DNA of 64,000 bases from an uncultured Candidatus Saccharibacteria bacterium (GTDB lineage: Bacteria; Patescibacteriota; Minisyncoccia; Phycocordibacterales; DATGWK01), in NCBI GenBank assembly GCA_964428845.1, contig CAYRZH010000001.1, forward strand, positions 204,445 through 268,444. The letters run 5' to 3'. How positions within the stretch are numbered: position 1 is the first letter of the stretch; every line of letters starts with the position of its first letter. Shown here piece after piece: positions 893 through 64,000 of the stretch. Below the pieces are notes generated by a model that saw only the letters and a list, made by a program, of their open reading frames with translations, had not been told where the DNA came from and searched no databases. Position numbers and translations under genes: made by a program.

Positions 893-1495
893 ATGAATAC
901 GACGATGAGCACCAAGCAACTCCAGTCACTTCTGGACCTCGCTGAACAGAAGGGGCTCACTCCAGAGCGCATGACTGTGATTCTTGCCTCTGGAGTCCTC
1001 GCAGATGTCCTTGATGCCGGTGCGCTTCTTTCGAACCGTGGAGCGGTTCGTCGGGCCCTGGGTCTCGGACCGCTCGAGTTCCAGATCACCGTGGACTACA
1101 CCCTCGACCTCGCTGCGATGATCGCAGCCGGCAAGTACGACTACGTCAACCCCGACATCATGGCCGGCAGTTTCCCGATCAAGGGAGAAGGCAAGCGGGA
1201 ACTGACAGCCCAGCTCGTCCACTTCAACCGTGTCATCTCATCAGATGATGTGGAGAAGGAACTCTCCAAGAAAGGCCTGCGGCCCGCCACGATCGAGGAA
1301 CTCCTTGCCTTCGGGGCGACATTCCCTGAAGTGCAGCGCAGATTCCCGATCATCGCTCTTGGCTCTGTCGCCGAGGTCCGCGGCCGCCGGAGCGTTTCGG
1401 CTCTCGGCGGGGACAGGTCCGGGCGCAACCTCTACCTGTACTGGCGTGTCAGCGATTGGCTTGGGCTCTGCCGTTTCCTCGCCCTCCCCAAGTAG
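893..1495 (+). CDS. Uncharacterized protein, family member P1 (G+C-rich cassette gene)
   Basis: 200-aa ORF with SD AAAGGAG 8 nt upstream. Its core (YDYVNPDIMAGSF...LVHFNRVISSDDVEKEL) aligns with P2 and P3 (NPxIT.ENY ... F.VKVF.I...VSSDD.L). It is followed by a GC-clamp terminator. Confidence 0.5.
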   Translation: MNTTMSTKQLQSLLDLAEQKGLTPERMTVILASGVLADVLDAGALLSNRGAVRRALGLGPLEFQITVDYTLDLAAMIAAGKYDYVNPDIMAGSFPIKGEGKRELTAQLVHFNRVISSDDVEKELSKKGLRPATIEELLAFGATFPEVQRRFPIIALGSVAEVRGRRSVSALGGDRSGRNLYLYWRVSDWLGLCRFLALPK

Positions 1496-2693: not shown

Positions 2694-3131
2694 ATGGAAA
2701 CGCACGGAATCACAATTTCACCGGTAAATATGGGAGAGCGAGCCAAGCTCGATATTCGTGCTGGTGACACTGTGAAAGTGTGGCAGAAGATTCAGGAAAA
2801 AGGCAAAACTCGTCTTCAGGGTTTTGAGGGTCTTGTTTTGGCCGTAAAACATGGCAAGGAAGCAGGGGGAACTTTTACTGTAAGAAAGGTGGCAAGTGGT
2901 GTCGGCGTTGAGAAAATTTTCCCAATCTATTCTCCAGTTATAGATAAAATTGAGATCACGAAGCGTTCAAAGGTTCGACGTGCCAAGCTCTATCATATTC
3001 GCGATAAGGCTGCTAAGGAGGTGAAGCGTCAGATGAGAAATATCAGGGTCAGCCGTGATGAGGAAGTAGCGGAGGCGCCAGCGACTCCAGCTGAAGCTCC
3101 GAAAGGGGAGGGGGAAAAGGTGGGGAAGTAA
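2694..3131 (+). CDS. rplS: 50S ribosomal protein L19 with a short acidic/Ala-Pro C-terminal tail
   Basis: METHGITISPVNMGERAKLDIRAGDTVKV ... FTVRKVASGVGVEKIFPIYSPVIDKIEI ... RRAKLYHIR matches the L19 consensus. Start chosen at the internal ATG that matches the family N-terminus. Confidence 0.85.
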   Translation: METHGITISPVNMGERAKLDIRAGDTVKVWQKIQEKGKTRLQGFEGLVLAVKHGKEAGGTFTVRKVASGVGVEKIFPIYSPVIDKIEITKRSKVRRAKLYHIRDKAAKEVKRQMRNIRVSRDEEVAEAPATPAEAPKGEGEKVGK

Positions 3132-3280: not shown

Positions 3281-3964
3281 ATGGGGAATAGCGGGCCAAA
3301 ACCAAAAGGCAAAATAAAGATTAAATGGTCCTCAAATTTTGCCTATGCCATTGGGCTTATTGCCACAGACGGAAACCTTTCTCCAAGTGGTCGTCATATA
3401 GTCTTTACATCTAAGGACTTTGAACAAATAAATAATTTCAAGAAGATTCTACGTTTAACAAATAAAATAGGGAAAAAGGGAAATGGTAGTAGTAAGGAGA
3501 AAAAATATTATGTCTTGCAATTTGGAGACGTCCTATTTTATTCATTTCTCGGGAAAATAGGCATATCTCCTGCAAAATCCAAAACCATAGGCCCTATTCA
3601 AGTTCCAGATAAATTCTTTTTTGATTTTCTAAGGGGATGTTTTGATGGCGATGGGTGCAGTTATAGTTATTGGGATAAGCGTTGGAAATCCAGCTTTCTT
3701 TTCTATATTTCCCTAGCTTCCGCGAGCGAACCTTTTATTTCTTGGGTTAGAAAAAAAGTAAAGCAGTTTGTGGGCGTATCTGGCCACGTTAGCAAACTAA
3801 AAAATGCTTCAGGTTTTCAATTGAGATATGCAAAAAACGATGCAAAGAAGATTGTTTATGAAATGTACAGAAAACCTAATAGTGTTTTCTTGAAAAGGAA
3901 AAAGTTGAAAATCAACAGATCTTTGGCTATTATGAGCCAATTCCCCAAAAGACGACTAAAGTGA
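3281..3964 (+). CDS. LAGLIDADG homing endonuclease, free-standing, very AT-rich
   Basis: Two LAGLIDADG motifs: YAIGLIATDGNL and FLRGCFDGDGCS. Own promoter-like TTGAGG-17-TACAAT lies upstream. The gene ends 16 nt before tRNA-Leu. Confidence 0.8.
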   Translation: MGNSGPKPKGKIKIKWSSNFAYAIGLIATDGNLSPSGRHIVFTSKDFEQINNFKKILRLTNKIGKKGNGSSKEKKYYVLQFGDVLFYSFLGKIGISPAKSKTIGPIQVPDKFFFDFLRGCFDGDGCSYSYWDKRWKSSFLFYISLASASEPFISWVRKKVKQFVGVSGHVSKLKNASGFQLRYAKNDAKKIVYEMYRKPNSVFLKRKKLKINRSLAIMSQFPKRRLK

Positions 3965-4751: not shown

Positions 4752-5399
4752 GTGGGTATCGGGACAAATATTTTCGGCTCTTTTCTCACATTGAATTTGG
4801 CAAATCGTCGCCGGCGGGGAATGGCTATGTTCGGACACAAAAAGCCTGATTCAGCCGCACGTATTTTGGGTAGGGGAACGACCGACCGCTTCAAACTCAT
4901 CGACGAGTTCGAGGTCGTCGTGCCGATGGATTATGTTCACGCCACCTGTCTCTCTGATCTTGCGAGGGATTTCGGACACATGATCTCCCCTTTTTACCCT
5001 GTATTGACTGACGACAACTACAGAAACGTGACGACCCGCATGGAGCCAGGGGAAAGATTTGTGGCAAAGATTTTTCACATTGTTGGGCTGGAAACTTCTT
5101 TTGCCTGTCTGGGTTTGCTTGATCGGGAGAGAGCCATTCTGGCCGGGGCCCAGGGGCTGGCTCTCGTTTTTCGGGTGGCGAAGGACAGACTACCTCCCGA
5201 TCTCTGGACAGTTTCTTTCGACAGACCAGACGCATTGTTCTTCGATAGCCACAACGGCTGTCACCGGGTGCCGACCATTGGGCCATCCAGACAAAATCCC
5301 GGCAAGGGAGAGTTCCACTCCGGCTTCTTTGAACCCTTCGAGGGGGATAAGGGTTGGGATGCTCGCTTCTGTCTTCTCTGTCTTGTTCGTCAAGGGTAG
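4752..5399 (+). CDS. Uncharacterized protein, family member P2 (G+C-rich cassette gene)
   Basis: GTG start 6 nt after AAAGGAG. Core FEVVVPMDYVHAT...YPVLTDDNYRNVTTRMEPGERFVAKIFHIVGLETS...AILAGAQGLAL...LWTVSFDRPDAL ... FCLLCL aligns with P3. Confidence 0.5.
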   Translation: MGIGTNIFGSFLTLNLANRRRRGMAMFGHKKPDSAARILGRGTTDRFKLIDEFEVVVPMDYVHATCLSDLARDFGHMISPFYPVLTDDNYRNVTTRMEPGERFVAKIFHIVGLETSFACLGLLDRERAILAGAQGLALVFRVAKDRLPPDLWTVSFDRPDALFFDSHNGCHRVPTIGPSRQNPGKGEFHSGFFEPFEGDKGWDARFCLLCLVRQG

Positions 5400-5579: not shown

Positions 5580-6209
5580 ATGGTTGAAAGCGCTGAATTT
5601 GGTGTAAAAAAAGATCAACTCCCAGACGACAAATTAAACAGTATTATAGAAAAATACTGCGCCTCCTTGGTGGTTCCAAAAGATAAACCAAAGAAACAAT
5701 TTTTTCTTTGCCCAGTCGGCCTTATTGGGTCTGGCAAGACAACGGTTTTAAAGCCTTTGGCCGAAAAATTGAATCTTGTGCGTATATCTGGAGATGAAAT
5801 TAGGAAGATACTTTATGACCTGGGTTTTGATTATGATCGAACGTGGGAGATAGGGAGTATGGTTGTTGAAAGATATGCCAGAGAAGGATACAGCATTGCT
5901 CACGATACTGATTGTGCTACTCCAAAAACTATTGAGGCGATAAATAAACTCTCTAAGGAATTGGGTGCCCAGGTAGTATGGGTGCACGTCAACCCTCCAG
6001 AAGAATTTATTTTAAATAAGTTAAGGAAATATAAACACACATGGCTATATCGTGACGGTGAACATGCCATATCCAATTATTTAAGCCGAAAAAAAGTGCA
6101 CGAAAATTTACCAATGAATTTTCTTTATTCGTTTGATACATCTAAACCCAATCTCGACGAACAAATAGAACAAGCTTCGGAAGTCATTTTAAACAAGACC
6201 CAATTTTAA
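5580..6209 (+). CDS. P-loop NTPase / small kinase-like protein (Walker A GLIGSGKTT), AT-rich
   Basis: Walker A motif and ~210-aa size typical of AAA_33/zeta-toxin-like or nucleoside-kinase-like proteins. Family not assignable by eye. Confidence 0.55.
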   Translation: MVESAEFGVKKDQLPDDKLNSIIEKYCASLVVPKDKPKKQFFLCPVGLIGSGKTTVLKPLAEKLNLVRISGDEIRKILYDLGFDYDRTWEIGSMVVERYAREGYSIAHDTDCATPKTIEAINKLSKELGAQVVWVHVNPPEEFILNKLRKYKHTWLYRDGEHAISNYLSRKKVHENLPMNFLYSFDTSKPNLDEQIEQASEVILNKTQF

Positions 6210-33672: not shown

Positions 33673-36600
33673 ATGGCCGAAGAGACTAAAAAAAATGTGG
33701 GGAAAAGTGAAGTTGCGCTTGCGGAAGAAAAAATTCTAAGGTTTTGGAAAGAGAACAAAATTTTTGAGAAAACTCTAGCGAAAAAATCGCCTGGCGGTGA
33801 GTATGTCTTCTACGATGGCCCACCATTTGCCACTGGTCTTCCTCATTATGGTCATATTTTGGTGAGTGCTATCAAAGATACGGTGCCGAGGTACTGGACC
33901 ATGAAAGGCAAACATGTAGGGCGACGTTGGGGTTGGGATTGTCATGGTCTGCCTATCGAGAATATTGTCGAAAAGGATTTAAAAATTTCTGGGAAAAAGG
34001 AAATAGAAGCTCTCGGTGTAGAAAAATTTAACGAATACGCTAAAAGTAAAGTGCTTGATTATGTGAACCAATGGAAAGAAACGGTCGAGCGTATCGGCCG
34101 TTGGGTGGATTTTGATGGTTCATACAAGACGATGGACAACACCTTCATCGAGTCTGTCTGGTGGGCACTCAAAGAGATTTGGGATAAAGATTTAATTTAT
34201 GAAGGTACCCGAGTATTGCCATACTGCCCGCGCTGCGAGACTCCTATCGCCAACTCCGAGATCGCCATGGACAACAGCTATAAAGATATCACCGACATTT
34301 CGGTGTATGTGAAGCTCGAGCTCGTGCCTGAAGAAAAAACGGGTCAAGAAAGTGAACTTAAAACATATCTCCTGGCCTGGACGACTACTCCCTGGACCTT
34401 GCCAGGCAATACTGCCGCGGCAGTAAACAAAGACTTAATGTATGTAAAAGCAAAAGTCACGCCCGCTGCTGGTGGTGGAGCCACTCCATACTTCCTAATT
34501 TTTGCTAAAGAAAAGCTCGCCGCTATTTCTAGCCTGGCAAAGGACGCGAAGCTTGAGGTTGTTTCCGAGATTAAGGGCAGTGATATCGTCGGCAAACCCT
34601 ACAAACCACTTCTAGAATATTTTTCTGGAAAAAATATTAAGAATAAAGAAAATGGCTGGAAGGTTTATGCGGCGCCATATGTCACAGCCGAGACCGGAAC
34701 AGGCATCGTGCATCTCGCGCCTGGATACGGCGAAGAGGATATGGAGTTGGCAAAAGATAATAACATTCCATTTGTGATGCATGTTGGTGCCGATGGTAAA
34801 TTTGTTTCTGAAGTGGGAGATGGCCTCGCTGGGCTCAAGGTAAAACCGAAACCGACTCCAGAAGATCCACAAGGACACCAGTCTTCAGATATCTTGATTA
34901 TCAAAATTTTAGCCGCTCGTGGTGCGCTCTTTGCCAAAGAAAAGATTGTTCATTCGTACCCACACTGTCACCGTTGCGAAACCCCCCTCTACTATTTTGC
35001 TATTCCAGCTTGGTTTATAAAAATCAGCGAAGTAAAAAAACGCATGATTGCCTTAAACGAGAAGATAAACTGGGTTCCCGAACACTTGAAACACGGCAGA
35101 TTTCTCAAGGGACTTGAGGGTGCGCCCGATTGGAATATTTCTAGAAACCGTTATTGGGCTTCGCCTCTGCCTATTTGGAAATGTGACAAATGTCCAGAAA
35201 CTACTTTCCTCGGTTCACTCGAGGATATAAAAAAACATGCTCCAGCCAAAAACAAATACTTCGTGATGCGTCATGGAGAGGCGGAGAACAATCTTCTTAA
35301 GGTTTTATCTTCTGACCCAAAGAACAATCATCGACTTACTGATAAAGGAAGAAACGATGTGGCTGTGTCGGCTCGGCTTTTAAGAAAGAAAAAAATCGAT
35401 GTTATCTACGCATCATCTTTTATCCGTGCCAAAGAGACCGCACAGATCGTGGCCGAGGCACTCGGTCTTTCTAGCGACAAAATCGTCGTTGACGATCGAT
35501 TGGTAGAAATAAACTTCGGTGAGCTTAGTGGTAAGCCGATCAAAGCCTATCCAGAGTTTTACGGCTACTCATATAAAGAGGCTTTTGAAAAGTCGATGCC
35601 TGGCGGTGAGAATCTTTCTCTCGTGAAAAAGAGAGCGGGTGATTTTATTTCCGAAATTGAGGAGAAGGAGAATGGTAAAAATATTCTCATCGTCAGTCAC
35701 GAAACTCCGATCTGGATGCTCGAGGCGGCTGCCGCGGGTGCCACCATAGCCCTGTCCGTAAAGATCCGCGAAGCGAAAGATGATGTCATCGGAACCGCCG
35801 AGTTGCGCACGCTCGATTTTTCACCTATCCCTCACAATAAAGATTACGAGCTTGATTTCCATCGGCCATATATCGATAAGATTATTTTCCCTTGCGTTTG
35901 CGGAGAGGGACAGATGCGGCGTATTCCCGAAGTGATCGACTGCTGGTTCGAATCTGGTTCTATGCCGTTTGCCCAAAGCCACTATCCCTTCGAAAATAAA
36001 AGAAATTTCGATAAGAATTTCCCGGCGCAGTTTATCGTCGAATATATTGCCCAAACGCGAACCTGGTTTTACTATACCCACGTTTTGTCGGCAATTCTTT
36101 TTAAAGATATTTCATTTGAAAACGTCATTGCTCATGGGACGGTGCTTGCGGAAGATGGACAGAAAATGTCTAAATCTAAGGGAAATTTCCCAGACCCATC
36201 TCATGTTTTCGACAAATACGGTGTGGACGCATTGCGATTCTATCTTCTGTCATCGCCCCTGATGAAATCCGAAGATCTTAGTTTTTCTGAAAAGGGAGTC
36301 GATGAGGTATACAAGAAAATAATTTTGCGTCTGCGAAACACCCTATCTTTCTATGAGATGTATAAAGGGAACCACACTCCGACGCATTCTCCAAGAGCCG
36401 AGACCATCCTTGATCGATGGATTCTCTCGCGTCTAGCCGAGGTCAATCAACAAGTCGGGCGGGCCATGGATTCATACGAGATCGACCAGGCCCTGCGCCC
36501 AATCGATGGATTTATCGAGGATCTGTCGGTCTGGTTTTTGAGACGCTCGCGTGAAAGGCTAAAAAGCGATGATGCCACAGAAAAAAATTCTGCACTTGAT

Positions 36601-37227
36601 ATCTTCCACTCCGTTCTACTAGAACTCTCAAAAATTATCGCACCATTCACTCCTTTTATTTCCGAAGATTTGTACAAGAGACTTGGCGGGGCCTTAGAAA
36701 GTGTTCACCTCGAAAGCTGGCCAAAGGCAGGGCATACAGATCAGGGTGTCATCGAGGAAATGGCAGAGGTTCGGAGAATAGTAGGCTTCGGACTCGAAGC
36801 ACGCGCCAAGGCGGGCATAAAGGTGCGTCAGCCGCTCTCGGAGCTTAAAGTTAGAAACTCCAAAATTAGAGACAAAGAAGAACTTCTAGGTCTTCTCAAA
36901 GATGAAATAAACGTTAAACAAATTTCTTTTGACGAGAAAATTGCAGACGAAGTTTCTTTAGATACAAATATTACCGAGACTCTCAAGGAAGAAGGGGATT
37001 TGCGAGAGTTTATTCGATTTGTACAAGATCTTAGAAAAAAGAAAGGCCTCAAGGCAGGAGAAGGGGCTACACTAGAGATGCATACCGACGAGTCAGGAAA
37101 AAGATTTGTTACTAAATTTGAAAAGGAAATATTAGGAAGTGCCTTTATAAAAAATATTTCTCACTTAGAAAGTTTGGAGGGCGAAACTTTCGAAATGAAT
37201 GGTACTAAATTTGTACTCTCTTTTTAG
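33673..37227 (+). CDS. ileS: Isoleucyl-tRNA synthetase with an in-frame ~200-aa histidine-phosphatase (phosphoglycerate-mutase-like) domain inserted in the zinc-knuckle loop
   Basis: HYGH and KMSKSKGN class I motifs. Insert YFVMRHGEAENN ... LTDKGRNDVAVSARLL ... ILIVSHETPI lies between IWKCDKCPETTF and FPCVCGEGQMRRIPEVIDCWFESGSMP. Confidence 0.9.
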   Translation: MAEETKKNVGKSEVALAEEKILRFWKENKIFEKTLAKKSPGGEYVFYDGPPFATGLPHYGHILVSAIKDTVPRYWTMKGKHVGRRWGWDCHGLPIENIVEKDLKISGKKEIEALGVEKFNEYAKSKVLDYVNQWKETVERIGRWVDFDGSYKTMDNTFIESVWWALKEIWDKDLIYEGTRVLPYCPRCETPIANSEIAMDNSYKDITDISVYVKLELVPEEKTGQESELKTYLLAWTTTPWTLPGNTAAAVNKDLMYVKAKVTPAAGGGATPYFLIFAKEKLAAISSLAKDAKLEVVSEIKGSDIVGKPYKPLLEYFSGKNIKNKENGWKVYAAPYVTAETGTGIVHLAPGYGEEDMELAKDNNIPFVMHVGADGKFVSEVGDGLAGLKVKPKPTPEDPQGHQSSDILIIKILAARGALFAKEKIVHSYPHCHRCETPLYYFAIPAWFIKISEVKKRMIALNEKINWVPEHLKHGRFLKGLEGAPDWNISRNRYWASPLPIWKCDKCPETTFLGSLEDIKKHAPAKNKYFVMRHGEAENNLLKVLSSDPKNNHRLTDKGRNDVAVSARLLRKKKIDVIYASSFIRAKETAQIVAEALGLSSDKIVVDDRLVEINFGELSGKPIKAYPEFYGYSYKEAFEKSMPGGENLSLVKKRAGDFISEIEEKENGKNILIVSHETPIWMLEAAAAGATIALSVKIREAKDDVIGTAELRTLDFSPIPHNKDYELDFHRPYIDKIIFPCVCGEGQMRRIPEVIDCWFESGSMPFAQSHYPFENKRNFDKNFPAQFIVEYIAQTRTWFYYTHVLSAILFKDISFENVIAHGTVLAEDGQKMSKSKGNFPDPSHVFDKYGVDALRFYLLSSPLMKSEDLSFSEKGVDEVYKKIILRLRNTLSFYEMYKGNHTPTHSPRAETILDRWILSRLAEVNQQVGRAMDSYEIDQALRPIDGFIEDLSVWFLRRSRERLKSDDATEKNSALDIFHSVLLELSKIIAPFTPFISEDLYKRLGGALESVHLESWPKAGHTDQGVIEEMAEVRRIVGFGLEARAKAGIKVRQPLSELKVRNSKIRDKEELLGLLKDEINVKQISFDEKIADEVSLDTNITETLKEEGDLREFIRFVQDLRKKKGLKAGEGATLEMHTDESGKRFVTKFEKEILGSAFIKNISHLESLEGETFEMNGTKFVLSF

Positions 37228-39816: not shown

Positions 39817-41226
39817 ATGGAAGACAAGAAGAAAAAGGGAAAGGCTGGCAGCGTCAGTGAAGGAAGACCAGACTCCGGCGGCGAAAATAGCGGAAAAATG
39901 GAAAAAATAATCTCTCTTGCTAAAAGGCGCGGCTTTATCTACCAAGGTTCGGAAATATACGGTGGCTTGGCCGGTACCTGGGACTACGGACCACTGGGCG
40001 TGGCACTCAAGAATAATATAAAGAATTTGTGGTGGAAAAGGTTCGTGAGCGACCGGGAGGATATGTATGGAGTGGATACCGCTATCCTCATGAACCAGAA
40101 AGTTTGGAAGGCTACCAAGCATACAGAGGTTTTCGCAGATCCGATGGTGGAGTGTAAGAAATGCAAGCACCAGTTCAGGGGTGATCAGGTAGAAGGGAAT
40201 AAGTGTCAGGACTGCGGTGGGATGCTCGGAGAAGTGAAGACGTTTAACACAATGTTCAAAACCCACGTCGGCGCGTCAGAAGATGCTGCCGCCACTTCCT
40301 ACCTTCGCCCCGAGACCGCACAGGGCATGTTTGTAAATTTTAAAAATGTCGTCGACTCATTTCACCCGAAGCTTCCGTTTGGCCTCGCACAAACAGGGAA
40401 GGCTTTTAGGAACGAAATAGCTCCACGCGACTTTCTCTTTCGAGCCCGCGAGTTTGAGCAAATGGAAATAGAATATTTTATCCGAGCGGGCGAATGGGAA
40501 AAATATTTTGAGTACTGGAAAACTGAAATGATCTCATGGTTTGAGCAACTTGGAGTCGCTCGTGGCACTGTGCACGAGCTTGAGGTGCCAGCAGAAGATC
40601 GGGCGCACTACTCGGAACGCACTATTGATTTTGAATTCGACTTCCCGTTTGGAAAAAAAGAACTAGCCGGCCTTGCCTACAGGACCGACTTCGATCTTAA
40701 AAACCATGCTTCGGCTAGTGGTGTGGACCTGTCGTATTTTGATGAGGAGACGAAGGAGAGATTTACTCCTCATGTTATTGAACCTACATTTGGTCTCGAC
40801 AGACTTATTCTTGCCATTTTCTCGAGTGCTTACAGTGAAGATGACTTGGGTGGAGAAAAAGCAGATATGAAGGAAGAAGTGGCCGACAAAATTGAGAAAG
40901 CCGAGAAACGTGTTTTTCTGAAACTCGCACCCGCAGTCGCCCCTGTGCGTGTTGCAGTTTTTCCTTTACTTAAAAATAAGCCGCAACTAGTCGAGAAGGC
41001 TCGCGAAGTTTACGGTATGCTCAAAAAAGAAATTTCAGGAGCCGTAGTTTTTGACGACAACGGCAACATCGGCAAGCGCTACAGAAGGCAGGATGAGATC
41101 GGCACGCCGCATTGTGTCACTATAGATTTTGATACTTTAGAAAATGACACGGTCACACTCCGCGATCGTGATACGGGGAAGCAGGAGAGGGTGGAGGTAA
41201 AAGAGCTCAAAAAAGCTTTACTTTAG
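39817..41226 (+). CDS. glyQS: Glycyl-tRNA synthetase (class II, dimeric alpha2 type)
   Basis: FRNEIAPRDFLFRAREFEQMEIEYF motif 2; 469 aa. Confidence 0.9.
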   Translation: MEDKKKKGKAGSVSEGRPDSGGENSGKMEKIISLAKRRGFIYQGSEIYGGLAGTWDYGPLGVALKNNIKNLWWKRFVSDREDMYGVDTAILMNQKVWKATKHTEVFADPMVECKKCKHQFRGDQVEGNKCQDCGGMLGEVKTFNTMFKTHVGASEDAAATSYLRPETAQGMFVNFKNVVDSFHPKLPFGLAQTGKAFRNEIAPRDFLFRAREFEQMEIEYFIRAGEWEKYFEYWKTEMISWFEQLGVARGTVHELEVPAEDRAHYSERTIDFEFDFPFGKKELAGLAYRTDFDLKNHASASGVDLSYFDEETKERFTPHVIEPTFGLDRLILAIFSSAYSEDDLGGEKADMKEEVADKIEKAEKRVFLKLAPAVAPVRVAVFPLLKNKPQLVEKAREVYGMLKKEISGAVVFDDNGNIGKRYRRQDEIGTPHCVTIDFDTLENDTVTLRDRDTGKQERVEVKELKKALL

Positions 41227-41252
41227 GGCATATTTCTTCTGCAGCGCTACTA

Positions 41253-41282
41253 TTGACTCGAGCACCGTTTGTATGATATAAT
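41253..41282 (+). promoter_or_regulatory. Promoter TTGACT-18-(TG)TATAAT of P3, followed by a conserved structured leader (stem GCACAG..CTGTGC, then GCTTC-TTCG-GAAGC just upstream of the SD)
   Basis: Promoter plus leader are ~85% identical to 42880-42990 upstream of P4. Confidence 0.45.
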
Positions 41283-41366
41283 TTCGCACAGAAAGAGTAT
41301 GGCACTGTGCTGTATTCTAGTTCTCTGAACCGCTTCTTCGGAAGCACAGCAAGAAAGGAAAATGTC

Positions 41367-42071
41367 ATGAGCGCGAAACGCGTGTGTGACATGAGCCCAA
41401 GAAACGTGTGTGACATGAGCTGTGGGGCGATGCATGAGTTTGCATTGGCCCTCGACAAGGCCGGTTTTACCGCTAGTCTTGTACAACAGGTCATCAACTC
41501 GGGTGGCAACAAGCTCGCGAGAGCAATGCGTGCTGCTCTCACAACAGGAGTCGTGGTGGATGACCGGTTCGAACTGGTCGACTCCTTCGATGTCGTTGTG
41601 CCCGACGGCTACGACCACGCAACCCGTTTGGGGACGTTCTGGAGAGAACACGGCGAAGAGTTCGATTGCTACAACCCCTCCATCACCGACGAGAACTACA
41701 GCGGAGCGACAAACAAACTCGTCCCTGGTCGGGGGTTCAGGGTGAAGGTTTTCCAGATCAGGGGGGTCGTGTCATCCGACGATTGCCTGGCTCACCTGCG
41801 TTCGCAGAAGGCTGTACTTGTTGGCGCCCAAGGTGCGAGTCTTGCCTACGAACAGGGCAAGAACATGCTACCAGTCAACCGGTGGTCAGTCTCCTTCGAT
41901 GATAAGGATGCGCTTTTGGAAGACCCCAGTGGCTGGCATTGGGTGCCGGACGTGCTCCGCCACTCGGACGGTAGCTTCAGGTTCAATCTTGGTCAGTTCG
42001 AGTTAAACTGGAACGACGGCTTCTGCCTTCTCTGCTTCTGCGGCTTTGAGCCCGAGTCCTCTGGCGCCTAG
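41367..42071 (+). CDS. Uncharacterized protein, family member P3 (G+C-rich cassette gene)
   Basis: FDVVVPDGYDHAT...YNPSITDENYSGATNKLVPGRGFRVKVFQIRGVVSSDDCLAHL...AVLVGAQGASL...RWSVSFDDKDAL...FCLLCF. Tandem 16-nt duplication near the N-terminus (VCDMS x2). Confidence 0.5.
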   Translation: MSAKRVCDMSPRNVCDMSCGAMHEFALALDKAGFTASLVQQVINSGGNKLARAMRAALTTGVVVDDRFELVDSFDVVVPDGYDHATRLGTFWREHGEEFDCYNPSITDENYSGATNKLVPGRGFRVKVFQIRGVVSSDDCLAHLRSQKAVLVGAQGASLAYEQGKNMLPVNRWSVSFDDKDALLEDPSGWHWVPDVLRHSDGSFRFNLGQFELNWNDGFCLLCFCGFEPESSGA

Positions 42072-42086
42072 GCCGCTCGAAGCCTT

Positions 42087-42800
42087 CTTCGAACCCATAA
42101 CCCTTAGACCCTCAATCCCCAGTTTGCCAAACGGCAGGCTGGGGATTTTCTTTTACGGGAAACCAACATTATCTGTAAAACCTATAAGCCCTTGACTTTT
42201 TATATAATTATGCTAAGATCCAGGCAGAAATCAGCGGCGAAATGGTGTTCAGAGTAGCCACATAAACAAGATCTTTCAAGGGAGAAGTGTCATGAATAGC
42301 CTCTCGTGTCGTCGGGGTTTCTCGTTTGTCGAGCGTGTGATCGTGATCATCATTGCTTGCATCCTGGTATCGATCGTCATTTCGCGCTTCGGGCCCAACG
42401 GCCCGGCGCCGCAGGTGATGGTTACCACCCCGAGCGGTGAGGAGGCGGAAGTCAAGGTCGGCGAGATCATTATGGTGACCTTGAGGAGAGGCAAAGGCCT
42501 CAGCTATCACCTCGAAGAGGGGACCTACCTGATCAGTGCGATCGAGTACAATGGAGTGAACTGGGAAGTTGGTCTCCGCAAACTCGGGAAACCCGGATTC
42601 CCCAGACTCACTTACTTTCTGAGTGACTATGTGTTCAAGAAGGAGACGAGTACCTATATCTGGGTTCAGGTGATCGAACCCACTGATCCGCAGTACAAAG
42701 ATCTCATGGTCGAGTTCGCCAAGGGGGGTGGTAAGTAGGAAGAAGGGAGTGTGACACAAGTCGCCGACCATGGGGTTGGCGATTTTCTTTATCCATCCAT
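42087..42800. repeat. Copy A of a ~715-bp 100%-identical direct repeat (terminator + prepilin-like gene); part of a 1.6-kb tandem duplication
   Basis: Identical to 43684-44398 at an offset of ~1598 bp. Begins with a strong terminator (12-bp stem CCCCAGTTTGCC-AAAC-GGCAGGCTGGGG + ATTTTCTTTT). Confidence 0.85.
42292..42738 (+). CDS. Prepilin-type N-terminal cleavage/methylation-domain protein (pseudopilin-like), copy A
   Basis: RRG|FSFVERVIVIIIACILVSIV matches G-F-x-x-x-E with hydrophobic helix; 148 aa. Confidence 0.5.
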   Translation: MNSLSCRRGFSFVERVIVIIIACILVSIVISRFGPNGPAPQVMVTTPSGEEAEVKVGEIIMVTLRRGKGLSYHLEEGTYLISAIEYNGVNWEVGLRKLGKPGFPRLTYFLSDYVFKKETSTYIWVQVIEPTDPQYKDLMVEFAKGGGK

Positions 42801-42822
42801 TTCTTTATGCCGCACTCTCTTC

Positions 42823-42870
42823 ATGAAATTTAATAAAAAGATACTAAAGAGTGGTTTGCGTCTCATTACT
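42823..42870 (+). pseudogene. Duplicated 5' fragment of the M16 peptidase gene (MKFNKKILKSGLRLIT) left at the duplication junction. It runs in-frame through the P4 promoter/leader.
   Basis: Near-identical to the N-terminus of the intact gene at 44421. Confidence 0.55.
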
Positions 42871-42879
42871 GCGCTACTA

Positions 42880-42909
42880 TTGACTTGTGTACCATTCGTA
42901 TTATATAAT
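42880..42909 (+). promoter_or_regulatory. Promoter TTGACT-18-TATAAT of P4 plus the conserved structured leader
   Basis: Paralogous to 41253-41366. Confidence 0.45.
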
Positions 42910-42990
42910 CTCGCGCAGAAAGAGTATGGCACTGTGCTGTATTCTAGTTCCCTCAAACCGCTTCTTCGGAAGCAAAGGAAGGAAATGCCC

Positions 42991-43698
42991 ATGAGTAGTG
43001 GGAATGTCCGACTGATCACGTCTGGTCAAAAGTTCGAATTAGCGGCGGCGCTCGTCAAGGCGGTTCCGGAATTAGATTCGATGCCATTTGAGACTGCCCG
43101 GCGATGGATCGGCGATCAGAAGGCTATTGCCTGCGCCCTGTCGCAGGCTCTCATGCCGGCCGAGGTCGTTGGGGCACAGAAGACTATCCTCCGTCTGATT
43201 CCCGGTGCCGAGGCTCTCACCCTCGGACCCACCGACGGCCAGGCAACGATCGCAGAGTCAAGGGGCGTCTTCAACAACGTCGACCCCGGCTTCACGACCT
43301 GGGGAACAAACGTCCCCGGAGTCGCCACCGGGGAGATCGCTGTCTCTGTCTACGAATTGGTTGCAGACGCTTCCTTCGAGCAGATGTTCGGGTCGCTCCC
43401 CGCACGCCTCGGCGCGCTCTGTCTCACACAGGCTCAAATCATCAAGTTCGTACTAACACGCCAGCGTCACCTCCGCACCGACGGCTACGCCACGTTCTTC
43501 CTTTTCGAAGTGGGAAGCGAGTTTTTCGTCGCGCACGTGTACCTGCCCGCCGGTGGCGACCCCCATGTGCACTTCTACCGCCTCTCGGGCGCCTTCGGCT
43601 GGCACCGCGAGCACCGCCATCGCATCGTGGTTCCGCAACTCACCCCTGCCCGTCCCGGAATCCTGCCCCCAGCTCGATTCTCTGCTTCGAACCCATAA
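42991..43698 (+). CDS. Uncharacterized protein, divergent family member P4 (G+C-rich cassette gene)
   Basis: SD AAAGGAAGGAA 8 nt upstream. Retains only parts of the family core (FNNVDPGFTTWGTNVPGVATGEIAVSVYEL vs YNPSITDENY...LVPGRGFRVKVFQI). The C-terminus runs into repeat B. Confidence 0.4.
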   Translation: MSSGNVRLITSGQKFELAAALVKAVPELDSMPFETARRWIGDQKAIACALSQALMPAEVVGAQKTILRLIPGAEALTLGPTDGQATIAESRGVFNNVDPGFTTWGTNVPGVATGEIAVSVYELVADASFEQMFGSLPARLGALCLTQAQIIKFVLTRQRHLRTDGYATFFLFEVGSEFFVAHVYLPAGGDPHVHFYRLSGAFGWHREHRHRIVVPQLTPARPGILPPARFSASNP

Positions 43699-44398
43699 CC
43701 TTTAGACCCTCAATCCCCAGTTTGCCAAACGGCAGGCTGGGGATTTTCTTTTACGGGAAACCAACATTATCTGTAAAACCTATAAGCCCTTGACTTTTTA
43801 TATAATTATGCTAAGATCCAGGCAGAAATCAGCGGCGAAATGGTGTTCAGAGTAGCCACATAAACAAGATCTTTCAAGGGAGAAGTGTCATGAATAGCCT
43901 CTCGTGTCGTCGGGGTTTCTCGTTTGTCGAGCGTGTGATCGTGATCATCATTGCTTGCATCCTGGTATCGATCGTCATTTCGCGCTTCGGGCCCAACGGC
44001 CCGGCGCCGCAGGTGATGGTTACCACCCCGAGCGGTGAGGAGGCGGAAGTCAAGGTCGGCGAGATCATTATGGTGACCTTGAGGAGAGGCAAAGGCCTCA
44101 GCTATCACCTCGAAGAGGGGACCTACCTGATCAGTGCGATCGAGTACAATGGAGTGAACTGGGAAGTTGGTCTCCGCAAACTCGGGAAACCCGGATTCCC
44201 CAGACTCACTTACTTTCTGAGTGACTATGTGTTCAAGAAGGAGACGAGTACCTATATCTGGGTTCAGGTGATCGAACCCACTGATCCGCAGTACAAAGAT
44301 CTCATGGTCGAGTTCGCCAAGGGGGGTGGTAAGTAGGAAGAAGGGAGTGTGACACAAGTCGCCGACCATGGGGTTGGCGATTTTCTTTCTCCCTATCT
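43684..44398. repeat. Copy B of the ~715-bp identical direct repeat
   Basis: See copy A. Confidence 0.85.
43890..44336 (+). CDS. Prepilin-like protein, copy B (identical to copy A)
   Basis: Identical ORF translation. Confidence 0.5.
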   Translation: MNSLSCRRGFSFVERVIVIIIACILVSIVISRFGPNGPAPQVMVTTPSGEEAEVKVGEIIMVTLRRGKGLSYHLEEGTYLISAIEYNGVNWEVGLRKLGKPGFPRLTYFLSDYVFKKETSTYIWVQVIEPTDPQYKDLMVEFAKGGGK

Positions 44399-44420
44399 CC
44401 CTTTATGCTACACTCCCTTC

Positions 44421-45689
44421 ATGAAATTTAATAAAAAAACTTTGAAAAGTGGCCTGCGTCTCATTACTGTGCCACTCAAAGACAGTCCTGCTGTCACAGT
44501 ATTGGTGATGGTTGAGGCCGGTTCAAAATATGAGACCAAGGAGATAAATGGACTTTCACATTTCCTCGAGCACATGTGCTTCAAGGGGACAAAGAAACGC
44601 CCCAACTCCATAGACATAAGTCGCGAGCTCGACTCTATCGGTGCCCAATATAATGCATTTACTTCTCAAGAGTACACTGGCTACTATGCGAAGGCTCATC
44701 CCAAGCATTTAGCAAAAATCCTCGACGTTATCTCCGATATGTATCTCGATCCTGTTTTCGATAGTCGTGAGATAGAAAAAGAAAAAGGAGTAATCGTGGA
44801 AGAGATAAATATGTATGAGGATATGCCCCAGCGCCACGTCCACGACATTTTTATGGAGCTTCTGTACGGCGACACTCCTGCTGGTTGGAACATTGCCGGG
44901 ACTCGCCAGCGGGTCAAAGCTATGACCCAGAAACATTTTATTGACTATCGCTCCAAACACTATGTGGGGAAGGGAACTGCGGTGATCGTTGCCGGAAGCT
45001 TCGATGAAAAAAAACTTGCAAAAGATGTCGAAAAAGCTTTTGAGAAAATCAGCACAGCAAAAAAGCATTCGAAGATAAAAGTTGCAGAGAAGCAAAAAGA
45101 ACCGAAAGTATTTATAAAAGACAAAAAGACAGACCAGACCCATCTAGTTCTCGGCGTGCGGGCTTTCGATATTTTCAATAAAGATATTGCCAAGCTGAAG
45201 GTTTTAAGTGCCGTGCTTGGTAGTGGCATGAGCTCGAGGCTATTTCAGAAACTGCGCGACGAAATGGGTGTCGGATATTATGTGAGATCTGGTAGCGACG
45301 AATACACCGACCACGGCTATCTAGCTGTCTCTACGGGCGTCGACAAGTCACGTGTTGTGGAAGTTATTAAAGCTATTCTAGAAGAATTTAGGAGACTCAC
45401 CCGCGAGACCGTTCCACCAGCCGAGCTTGCGAAAGCCAAAGAATATCTTGTCGGTAACATGTATTTGGGCTTGGAATCTTCTGATGCACTCGCCGAATTT
45501 TATGGTTTTCAAGAAATTTTAAAACATAAAAATGAAACTCCCGCCGAAATTGCAAAGCAGATCGAGAAAGTGACAGCACAAGATGTGAAAAATATAGCAA
45601 AAAAAATATTCAAAAATCAGTCTCTAAATCTTGCACTTATCGGTGAGATAAAGGATAAAAAAGATCTTTCCAGATCATTTCGTCTTTAA
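44421..45689 (+). CDS. M16-family zinc metallopeptidase (insulinase/pitrilysin-like)
   Basis: HFLEHMCFKGT inverted zinc-binding motif HxxEH. Confidence 0.8.
   Translation: MKFNKKTLKSGLRLITVPLKDSPAVTVLVMVEAGSKYETKEINGLSHFLEHMCFKGTKKRPNSIDISRELDSIGAQYNAFTSQEYTGYYAKAHPKHLAKILDVISDMYLDPVFDSREIEKEKGVIVEEINMYEDMPQRHVHDIFMELLYGDTPAGWNIAGTRQRVKAMTQKHFIDYRSKHYVGKGTAVIVAGSFDEKKLAKDVEKAFEKISTAKKHSKIKVAEKQKEPKVFIKDKKTDQTHLVLGVRAFDIFNKDIAKLKVLSAVLGSGMSSRLFQKLRDEMGVGYYVRSGSDEYTDHGYLAVSTGVDKSRVVEVIKAILEEFRRLTRETVPPAELAKAKEYLVGNMYLGLESSDALAEFYGFQEILKHKNETPAEIAKQIEKVTAQDVKNIAKKIFKNQSLNLALIGEIKDKKDLSRSFRL

Positions 45690-62004: not shown

Positions 62005-64000
<1,996 letters not shown>

Follow-up and report, generated by a model that had tools for sequence, protein, structure and literature searches.

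A 64,000-nucleotide (nt) stretch of contig CAYRZH010000001.1 (assembly GCA_964428845.1, positions 204,445 to 268,444 of the forward strand; here called the window), from an uncultured Candidatus Saccharibacteria bacterium, carries two head-to-tail units between the genes for glycyl-tRNA synthetase (GlyRS) and an M16 peptidase. Each unit contains one of two dissimilar genes, P3 or P4, followed by the same gene for a prepilin-like protein. Judged by their homologs, P3 and P4 are members of two variable-protein families of diversity-generating retroelements (DGRs). We lean towards a history in which two diverged versions of the locus were joined, and a 704-bp segment was then homogenised by gene conversion, in an accessory island of DGR-type genes. 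Bacteria of the candidate phyla radiation (CPR) are obligate episymbionts and have the highest DGR density among cellular lineages. The locus provides an example of two variable-protein families that appear interchangeable behind one regulatory leader, and of variable-protein genes uncoupled from the retroelement and physically paired with a pilin-like gene.

Repeat architecture of the two units

The units (41244-42870 and 42871-44468) are a tandem segmental duplication with a novel junction between unit end and unit start. Each consists of a strong sigma-70 promoter, a two-hairpin leader, a P gene, a terminator, a second promoter, the prepilin-like gene, a second terminator, and the upstream region and start of the M16 gene. 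Promoters and terminators were placed by consensus scans and sequence reading. A first-pass annotation had described an exact 1.6-kb tandem duplication with flanks 100% identical. The tandem repeat is real but only 44% of the unit is exact. This portion is a 704-bp block (42087-42790 versus 43685-44388, offset 1598) in which 703/704 positions agree. The sole mismatch is a C at 42103 versus a T at 43701, and 42104-42790 is perfect. The 3′ flank, put at ~715 bp and said to be identical to the base as far as 42800, is therefore near-identical, contains one mismatch and ends at 42790. Identity over 704 bp cannot have arisen by chance. The block begins 27 nt 5′ of the hairpin of the first terminator and ends at the T-run of the second. 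It comprises the P 3′ untranslated region (3′UTR) and one complete small transcription unit.

Beyond the block the two units are diverged. Identity falls abruptly past 42790, as 42791-42870 and 44389-44468 are 78% identical; just outside the block it is 62% on the left and 78% on the right. The right edge is a patch with 7 mismatches in 12 nt, and at the left edge lie the non-homologous ends of the P coding sequences (CDSs). The promoter-leaders (41244-41329 versus 42871-42956, offset 1627) are 88% identical (first put at ~85%), or 77.5% with gaps counted once the junction and the ribosome-binding site (RBS) region are included. Leader differences cluster in the promoter spacer; in both units the -35 and -10 boxes are preserved, as are the two hairpins. 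The leader motif, the block and the pilin-like gene each occur only twice in the window. An identical segment with sharp bounds inside diverged homologous DNA in both copies is the pattern of a gene-conversion tract. The block is best read as a tract homogenised by later gene conversion and not as a preserved docking site.

P3 and P4 resemble targets of diversity-generating retroelements

P3 and P4 had been described as barely alignable, and the measurements agree. BLASTP between them was not significant (best E 1.1), global nucleotide identity was 0.51, which is the level of shuffled sequences (mean 0.48, maximum 0.51) and far from that of the flanks, and profile-profile comparison of the two families was colinear and not significant (probability 6.9%). 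Any homology between P3 and P4 would be at the level of fold class only. Neither protein, nor a P3 paralog at 4752-5399, matched Pfam, NCBIfam or PHROGs, and tblastn against phage genomes produced no match. Among Patescibacteria hypothetical proteins, P3 had 171 hits and P4 had 65. Both families have a variable N-terminus, a conserved core and a hypervariable stretch in the last ~40 residues. A C-terminal extension of 13-20 aa in P4 ends inside the block.

The homologs place both families among DGR targets. P0005 (P3 family, locus L003), P0004 (P3 family, L011/L012) and P0123 (P4 family, L010) are encoded directly upstream of a bAvd and/or RVT_1 gene. In these homologs the 3′ end of the gene, the variable region (VR), recurs ~340-460 nt downstream as a 118-123-nt copy, the template repeat (TR), and TR/VR mismatches are confined to adenines of the TR. 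P0002 (L096), the closest P3 relative, has a TR downstream as well. DGR targets are thus demonstrable in both families (P0005, P0004 and P0002 in the P3 family, P0123 in the P4 family). The 3′ end of P3 aligns to the TRs of L003 and L011, and that of P4 to the VR and TR of L010. Because the homologs have Avd and reverse transcriptase (RT) neighbors and adenine-only TR mismatches, P3 and P4 would be DGR-type variable proteins. The first-pass annotation missed that their families are diversified by DGR retroelements at a C-terminal variable region. AlphaFold (AF2) models of P3 and P4 both match C-type-lectin/FGE-like folds, with the same top match (8oks_B), and the predicted models therefore have the C-type-lectin fold of DGR targets. 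P3 and P4 are best called analogues of one fold class and architecture, not recent paralogs. One DGR can serve two targets, as in L011, where genes for 226-aa and 277-aa targets flank the RT and both VRs match one TR (repeats at 2950-3081, 3462-3579 and 5737-5868).

Within the window no TR was found for P3, P4 or the 4752-5399 paralog, and no RT or Avd was detected by tblastn with the L003, L010 and L011 proteins (best E 0.7). Since the RT, Avd and TR are all missing from the window, P3 and P4 are probably either remote targets or orphans, and for their variable regions to undergo adenine mutagenesis all three components would have to be supplied from outside it. A hairpin with a 15-bp stem lies 43 nt past the P3 stop and 14 nt past the P4 stop; an initiation of mutagenic homing (IMH) site is definable only with a TR. 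Orphan family members occur elsewhere (L001, L004-L009, L015). For one of them, the P4-family protein P0154 (L004-L009), there is no RT within 6 kb, and 22 contigs, which come from different samples, encode exactly the same protein. An orphan thus need not be undergoing diversification, and the orphan members may simply be inactive.

Genes of both families are 7-16 percentage points richer in GC than their host loci in 7/7 other genomes; the comparison covered L001, L003, L004, L010, L011, L015 and L096 together with P3, P4 and the pilin-like gene of the window. The excess could result from frequent transfer or from a compositional constraint linked to adenine mutagenesis.

The P3 paralog at 4752-5399 has unrelated flanks, with neither the leader nor the 704-bp block of the two units. 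A GC-rich ORF of 200 aa at 893-1495 (+) has a P3-like layout, with N-terminal helices and a 'VISSDDV' motif. Its membership in the family was not demonstrable (hhalign against the P3 family, only 4.6% probability), and it is a possible fourth, very distant member.

Evidence for exchange of coding sequences behind a shared leader

The leader of the two units, here called type A (~80 nt), is found in three genomes upstream of different CDSs: in the window, in L097 (P0181) and in L015 (P0122). Identity to leader 1 is 88% for leader 2, 84% for the leader in L097 and 78% for that in L015. The hairpin regions (41290-41350 and 42917-42975 in the window, 511-585 in L097, 1693-1760 in L015) are conserved, and 3/17 pairs have compensatory changes. 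The only Rfam match was sub-threshold, to PhotoRC-I (RF01716; 27.7 and 24.4 bits versus 45). The type-A leader may be an undescribed cis-regulatory RNA.

In L097 the leader and the first ~43 codons of P0181 are 77% identical to unit 2 over 194 nt. The N-terminal product of P0181 is 69% identical to the P4 N-terminus and its C-terminal domain is different. In L015 the leader precedes P0122, a P4-family gene. The closest P3 relatives (L096, L003, L011) have another leader type and share only the last ~25 nt around the RBS with leader 1. P3-type nucleotide homology is limited to 41340-42091 (76% to L096); it begins at the RBS patch and stops 20 nt beyond the stop codon. A 3′ motif (CTTAGACCCT…CCCC hairpin) is conserved downstream of the genes of both families and of P0181. 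So a P3-type CDS appears to have come to lie downstream of a leader usually found with P4-type genes, through exchange between these short conserved patches. Smaller segments have moved too. P3- and P4-family members have N-terminal modules in common (up to 57% identity over ~40 residues), and P4 combines an N-module like that of L097 with a C-domain like that of L015. Within the P3/P4 superfamily such exchange of modules is common.

P3 and P4 are each 54-71% identical to family members in other genomes and are mutually unalignable, and the non-coding DNA next to them is 78-88% identical. Gradual divergence of P3 and P4, already the less favored reading in the first-pass annotation, therefore fails as an explanation, and whole-CDS exchange has occurred. 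The sequence comparisons support exchange of whole CDSs and modules between short conserved flanks. They also support, in a historical sense, the earlier idea that the central ORF had been swapped for a divergent paralog: a whole CDS was probably exchanged, but P3 and P4 belong to two families and are not recent paralogs. There is no evidence that the mechanism is programmed.

A programmed mechanism would be one in which, after a recent exact duplication, the central ORF was replaced at a docking site by a dedicated system that swaps cassettes between fixed flanks. The P3-type homology ends with the precision of a CDS (41340-42091), between patches common to both leader and 3′UTR types; three genomes have the type-A leader in front of different CDSs; the families have exchanged N-terminal modules; and the 3′ flank is 703/704 identical. 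All four features speak for such a system. On the other hand, leaders that are 88% identical and M16 segments that are 78% identical with a synonymous bias indicate that neither unit is a recent copy of the other. The window encodes no integrase, invertase or RT, the flanking genes are housekeeping genes, and there is no extra copy of the leader or block that might act as a silent donor. No alternative P allele at this site was recovered from public data, and the leader had no match in metagenomes, whether searched for as an exact or as a degenerate pattern. Because neither a recombinase, a silent donor cassette nor an alternative allele was found, the proposed locus that diversifies one gene between fixed flanks is not borne out, and we regard a dedicated swapping system as doubtful.

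The 704-bp block was also considered as a mobile insert. This was rejected, as the block has no terminal repeats or target duplications, and on the left it begins with the 3′UTR/terminator motif that is native to the P superfamily.

Proposed joining of the units

At the junction (42870/42871), codon 16 of M16 (…CATTACTG) is joined to the start of a unit (CGCTACTATTGACT…). Unit 1 starts 17 nt past the GlyRS stop, where …TTCTGCA is followed by GCGCTACTATTGACT, and the true M16 sequence at the junction point is CATTACTGTGCCACT. By sequence reading the microhomology at the join is CTG/GC.ACT, also CTG(C)GC.ACT. As described earlier, the junction left an in-frame 5′ stub of M16, with 16 codons from an ATG at 42823 and a frame that is open into P4.

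The stub and the true M16 5′ end differ by 8 nt over the 16 codons with only 1 aa change, and the 32 nt upstream of M16 are 31% different between copies. With 8 random substitutions, no more than one aa change has a probability of 1e-4; if only 4 hit a stub under neutral decay, the probability is 0.039. Because nearly all the changes are synonymous, both M16 5′ ends seem to have diverged while functional, in separate lineages. This pattern suggests that the M16 5′ ends diverged as functional loci before they were joined. With leaders 12% different, M16-upstream regions 31% different and a synonymous bias in the stub, the units are not recent copies of each other; they are old or from different lineages. 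The fixed flanks of a docking site, as first proposed, are contradicted by a diverged leader and a diverged stub whose differences are almost all synonymous.

The frame from the stub ATG at 42823 continues through leader 2 into P4 (42823-43698, +), and NCBI calls a 291-aa fusion (P0121) whose N-terminus, LRLITALLLTCVPFVLY, is signal-anchor-like. Leader 1 has a stop in the stub-to-P frame. The open frame from stub to P4 is not significant, since 10% of shuffled sequences are stop-free.

The history to which we lean would begin with the exchange of whole CDSs and N-terminal modules between two conserved patches, the part of the leader next to the RBS and the 3′UTR/terminator motif. One version of the locus bearing P3 and another bearing P4, by then already diverged, would next have been joined head to tail at the microhomology between M16 codon 16 and the start of the promoter region. 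Either unequal exchange or, following uptake of DNA, homology-facilitated illegitimate recombination could have made this join, of which the M16 stub of 16 codons would be the remnant. The 704-bp segment, the one stretch with continuous homology, would have been homogenised afterwards by gene conversion between the copies. The product would be two alternative ligand-binding proteins under near-equivalent promoters, each paired with the same pilin-like protein. The sequence of these events is inferred, as are an origin from separate lineages and the attribution of the identity to gene conversion.

Several points weigh against this history. An inter-lineage origin predicts diverged blocks, and therefore a second event, gene conversion, must be invoked. 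The synonymous bias rests on 16 codons. A close relative is lacking from the searched collections, where M16 identity reaches 65% at best and the leader has no metagenome match, and no strain with only P3 or only P4 at the site was seen. The only mismatch in the block is 17 nt from the repeat edge, as would be left if an assembler had collapsed internal variants. Since the window has no RT or TR, current DGR activity on P3 and P4 is unproven.

The main alternative is an old tandem duplication in situ, followed by long divergence, replacement of one CDS and recent conversion of the 704-bp block. In its favor, the junction is a simple join of one segment (41244 to M16 codon 16) with visible microhomology, the identical tract has diverged homologous DNA on both sides, and promoters and leader hairpins are intact in both units, with the differences mostly in the spacer. 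However, neutral decay of the stub should have produced aa changes, and there is only 1 among 8 nt differences (P 0.039 with 4). A tandem repeat is also prone to loss, and its long persistence would require selection on both copies. We consider this duplication in situ unlikely, if somewhat less so than the dedicated swapping system.

An assembly artefact is also conceivable, in which two haplotypes, or the chromosome and a 1.6-kb circle or other locus, were threaded through the 704-bp repeat with a possibly collapsed consensus. The source is a 269,714-bp contig of a metagenome-assembled genome, short reads cannot span the exact repeat, the one mismatch that survives is only 17 nt away from the edge of the repeat, and a graph traversal from P3 through the block to M16 is equally consistent with the sequence. 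Yet the junction between stub and leader 2 shares at most ~6 nt with either parent, too little for it to have been made by overlapping k-mers. However the graph is resolved, the order block, stub, leader 2, P4, block is needed, which means two block copies in one molecule, and the two units have distinct, intact promoters and leaders. An artefact is accordingly quite improbable.

Joining of diverged versions with later conversion draws on known processes only: insertion at a hot spot, joining at a microhomology, recombination between homeologous copies and gene conversion account for the repeat architecture. As it stands the locus is instructive and mechanistically ordinary, a product of hot spot, homeologous recombination and gene conversion. 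If populations do carry different P genes at this site, a recombinational layer of the repertoire would lie on top of DGR hypermutation. A still broader scheme would be two-tier diversification, with DGR mutagenesis of the VR, exchange of CDSs and N-modules by way of the leader and 3′-hairpin arms, and a pilin-like partner, e.g. in a pilus-associated adhesin for host attachment. We think this scheme has little chance of being correct.

The prepilin-like gene

The 148-aa product of the gene within the block has a prepilin GFxxxE N-terminus followed by a hydrophobic helix (RRGFSFVERVIVIIIACILV), as in type IV pilin-like proteins. It scores 16.6 bits with TIGR02532 (cut-off 16.3) and is below threshold for Pfam N_methyl (15.2 versus 21.2). 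Among 5.8e9 proteins its only homolog was itself, and among 1.8 billion representatives there was one remote full-length relative, P0188 (26% identical). GC at third codon positions (GC3) is 0.72 for the pilin-like gene, 0.69 for P3 and 0.71 for P4, versus 0.44-0.50 for host genes. In the closest P3 relatives the slot of this gene holds TR-avd-RT. A general association of P genes with pilin genes was not found among the loci; only L010 has a nearby pilin-like gene.

The GlyRS-M16 junction is an insertion hot spot

The M16 protein was scanned against one genome per species, which yielded 80 loci (L016-L095). The best match, from Ca. Paceibacter, was 65% identical and there was no close relative in the scan. 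The order DUF11 protein-GlyRS-M16-AI-2E transporter-MetRS is kept in ~65/80 Paceibacteria loci. GlyRS and M16 usually abut, and ~24/65 syntenic loci hold 0.4-5.5 kb of unrelated accessory genes between them, including genes for NUDIX-like and DUF559-like proteins, a histidine phosphatase and an ABC transporter. No P3, P4 or pilin homolog was present in the 80 M16 loci. Because ~24 loci carry unrelated inserts and none has a P3, P4 or pilin homolog, the GlyRS-M16 junction is a general insertion hot spot and not a docking site specific for P genes. The two units are an accessory island in this conserved junction of a Paceibacteria (CPR) genome. The NUDIX-like insert recurs in L049, L057, L060 and L083.

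Genes within ~8 kb of the units encode RecO, the DUF11 protein, GlyRS, M16, the AI-2E transporter, MetRS and TatD. No integrase, invertase or recombinase is encoded near the units, where the neighbors are housekeeping genes. No repeated recombination site was found beyond the units themselves, such as an integron or a site-specific cassette would have.

Comparison with known systems

DGR targets with a C-type-lectin fold include TvpA of Treponema denticola, Mtd of Bordetella phage BPP-1, archaeal AvpA and CPR 'clade 2' (PMC5758913, PMC8144416, PMC5006420). As in these, the P3 and P4 families include bona fide targets with adenine-specific TR/VR mismatches, and the variable region is at the extreme C-terminus of a CLec-like domain. 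CPR DGR targets have been reported without a recognisable transmembrane (TM) or Pfam domain (PMC8144416), and P3 and P4 likewise have neither. P3 and P4 as CPR DGR-type variable proteins are thus of a known kind (PMC5758913, PMC8144416, PMC5006420). What is new is the combination of two heterologous P genes, one conserved structured leader, an identical pilin-like ORFan after each and no coupled retroelement.

Unlike DGR cassettes, the units have no RT, Avd or TR within the 64-kb window, and two heterologous family members stand in tandem behind near-identical regulatory DNA. A pilin-like gene follows each P gene where the DGR relatives carry TR-avd-RT. For CPR DGRs a single adjacent target is the arrangement usually reported (PMC5758913), and P3 and P4 depart from it. 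Remote targets are known from Treponema denticola and from Lineage-4 DGRs (PMC5758913). P3 and P4 are like these in being target-type genes without a nearby RT, as judged over the 64-kb window only; remote targets are defined by a matching TR elsewhere in the genome, and P3 and P4 were assessed in the window. Modularity and intragenic recombination of DGR targets were proposed by Roux et al. 2021 (PMC8144416). The exchange of N-terminal modules between two C-terminal families fits that proposal, and the exchange of a whole CDS between a conserved leader and a 3′ element, frozen in a tandem array, goes beyond it.

The variable coding cassettes between conserved flanks resemble Neisseria pilE/pilS and integron cassettes. 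Silent donor copies of the flanks, as in pilE/pilS, are lacking from the window, and promoterless donors are likewise missing from it. Unlike integrons, there is no integrase or attC-type site and the neighbors are housekeeping genes. In contrast to both, the P genes are complete transcription units with their own promoters.

Homology-facilitated illegitimate recombination is a known process, as is tandem duplication with later gene conversion, the concerted evolution of repeats. The locus resembles concerted evolution in having one microhomology junction and a sharply bounded identical tract in diverged homologous DNA. It differs from observed cases in that the donor lineage and the conversion event would be deduced from the final sequence.

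Features of the window

Coordinates of the island, its borders and the P3 paralog are given in Table 1.

Table 1. Features of the GlyRS-M16 interval and the P3 paralog, in window coordinates
Feature	Position	Strand	Basis or remarks
GlyRS gene, left island border	39817..41226	+	ORF and synteny
Unit 1 promoter TTGACT-18-TATAAT (41253-41282) and type-A leader	41244..41366	+	Hairpins 41300-41347
P3, putative DGR-type variable protein, 234 aa	41367..42071	+	N-terminal helical module and predicted C-terminal C-type-lectin-like domain
P3 variable-region equivalent	41925..42042	+	Alignable to template repeats of L003 and L011
Near-identical block, copy 1	42087..42790	+	P 3′UTR, terminator, promoter, prepilin-like gene, terminator
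Copy 1 signals	Terminators 42114-42157, 42758-42792; promoter 42192-42219	+	First terminator stem 15 bp
Prepilin-like ORFan, copy 1, 148 aa	42292..42738	+	TIGR02532 match
M16 5′ stub (32 nt upstream and 16 codons, ATG 42823)	42791..42870	+	Ends at junction 42870/42871
Unit 2 promoter (42880-42909) and type-A leader	42871..42990	+	Consensus scan, leader alignment
P4, putative DGR-type variable protein of second family	42991..43698	+	Likely ATG 42991, alternative 42985
P4 variable-region equivalent	43521..43645	+	Alignable to VR and TR of L010
Near-identical block, copy 2	43685..44388	+	Includes prepilin-like copy 2 at 43890-44336
Copy 2 signals	Terminators 43712-43755, 44356-44390; promoter 43790-43817	+	Consensus scans
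Intact M16 peptidase gene, right island border	44421..45689	+	Pfam Peptidase_M16, M16_C
P3 paralog, third family member in window	4752..5399	+	41% identity, tblastn E 3e-35

Three observations concern other parts of the window. An isoleucyl-tRNA-synthetase (IleRS)-like protein of 1184 aa, encoded at 33673-37227 (+), has a His_Phos_1 domain at residues 530-693. The insertion splits the parts of the class I catalytic domain, which is unusual. An ORF with a LAGLIDADG domain (3281-3961, +) lies just upstream of tRNA-Leu and tRNA-His genes. A 23S rRNA gene begins at 62005 (+) and runs off the end of the window (64000).

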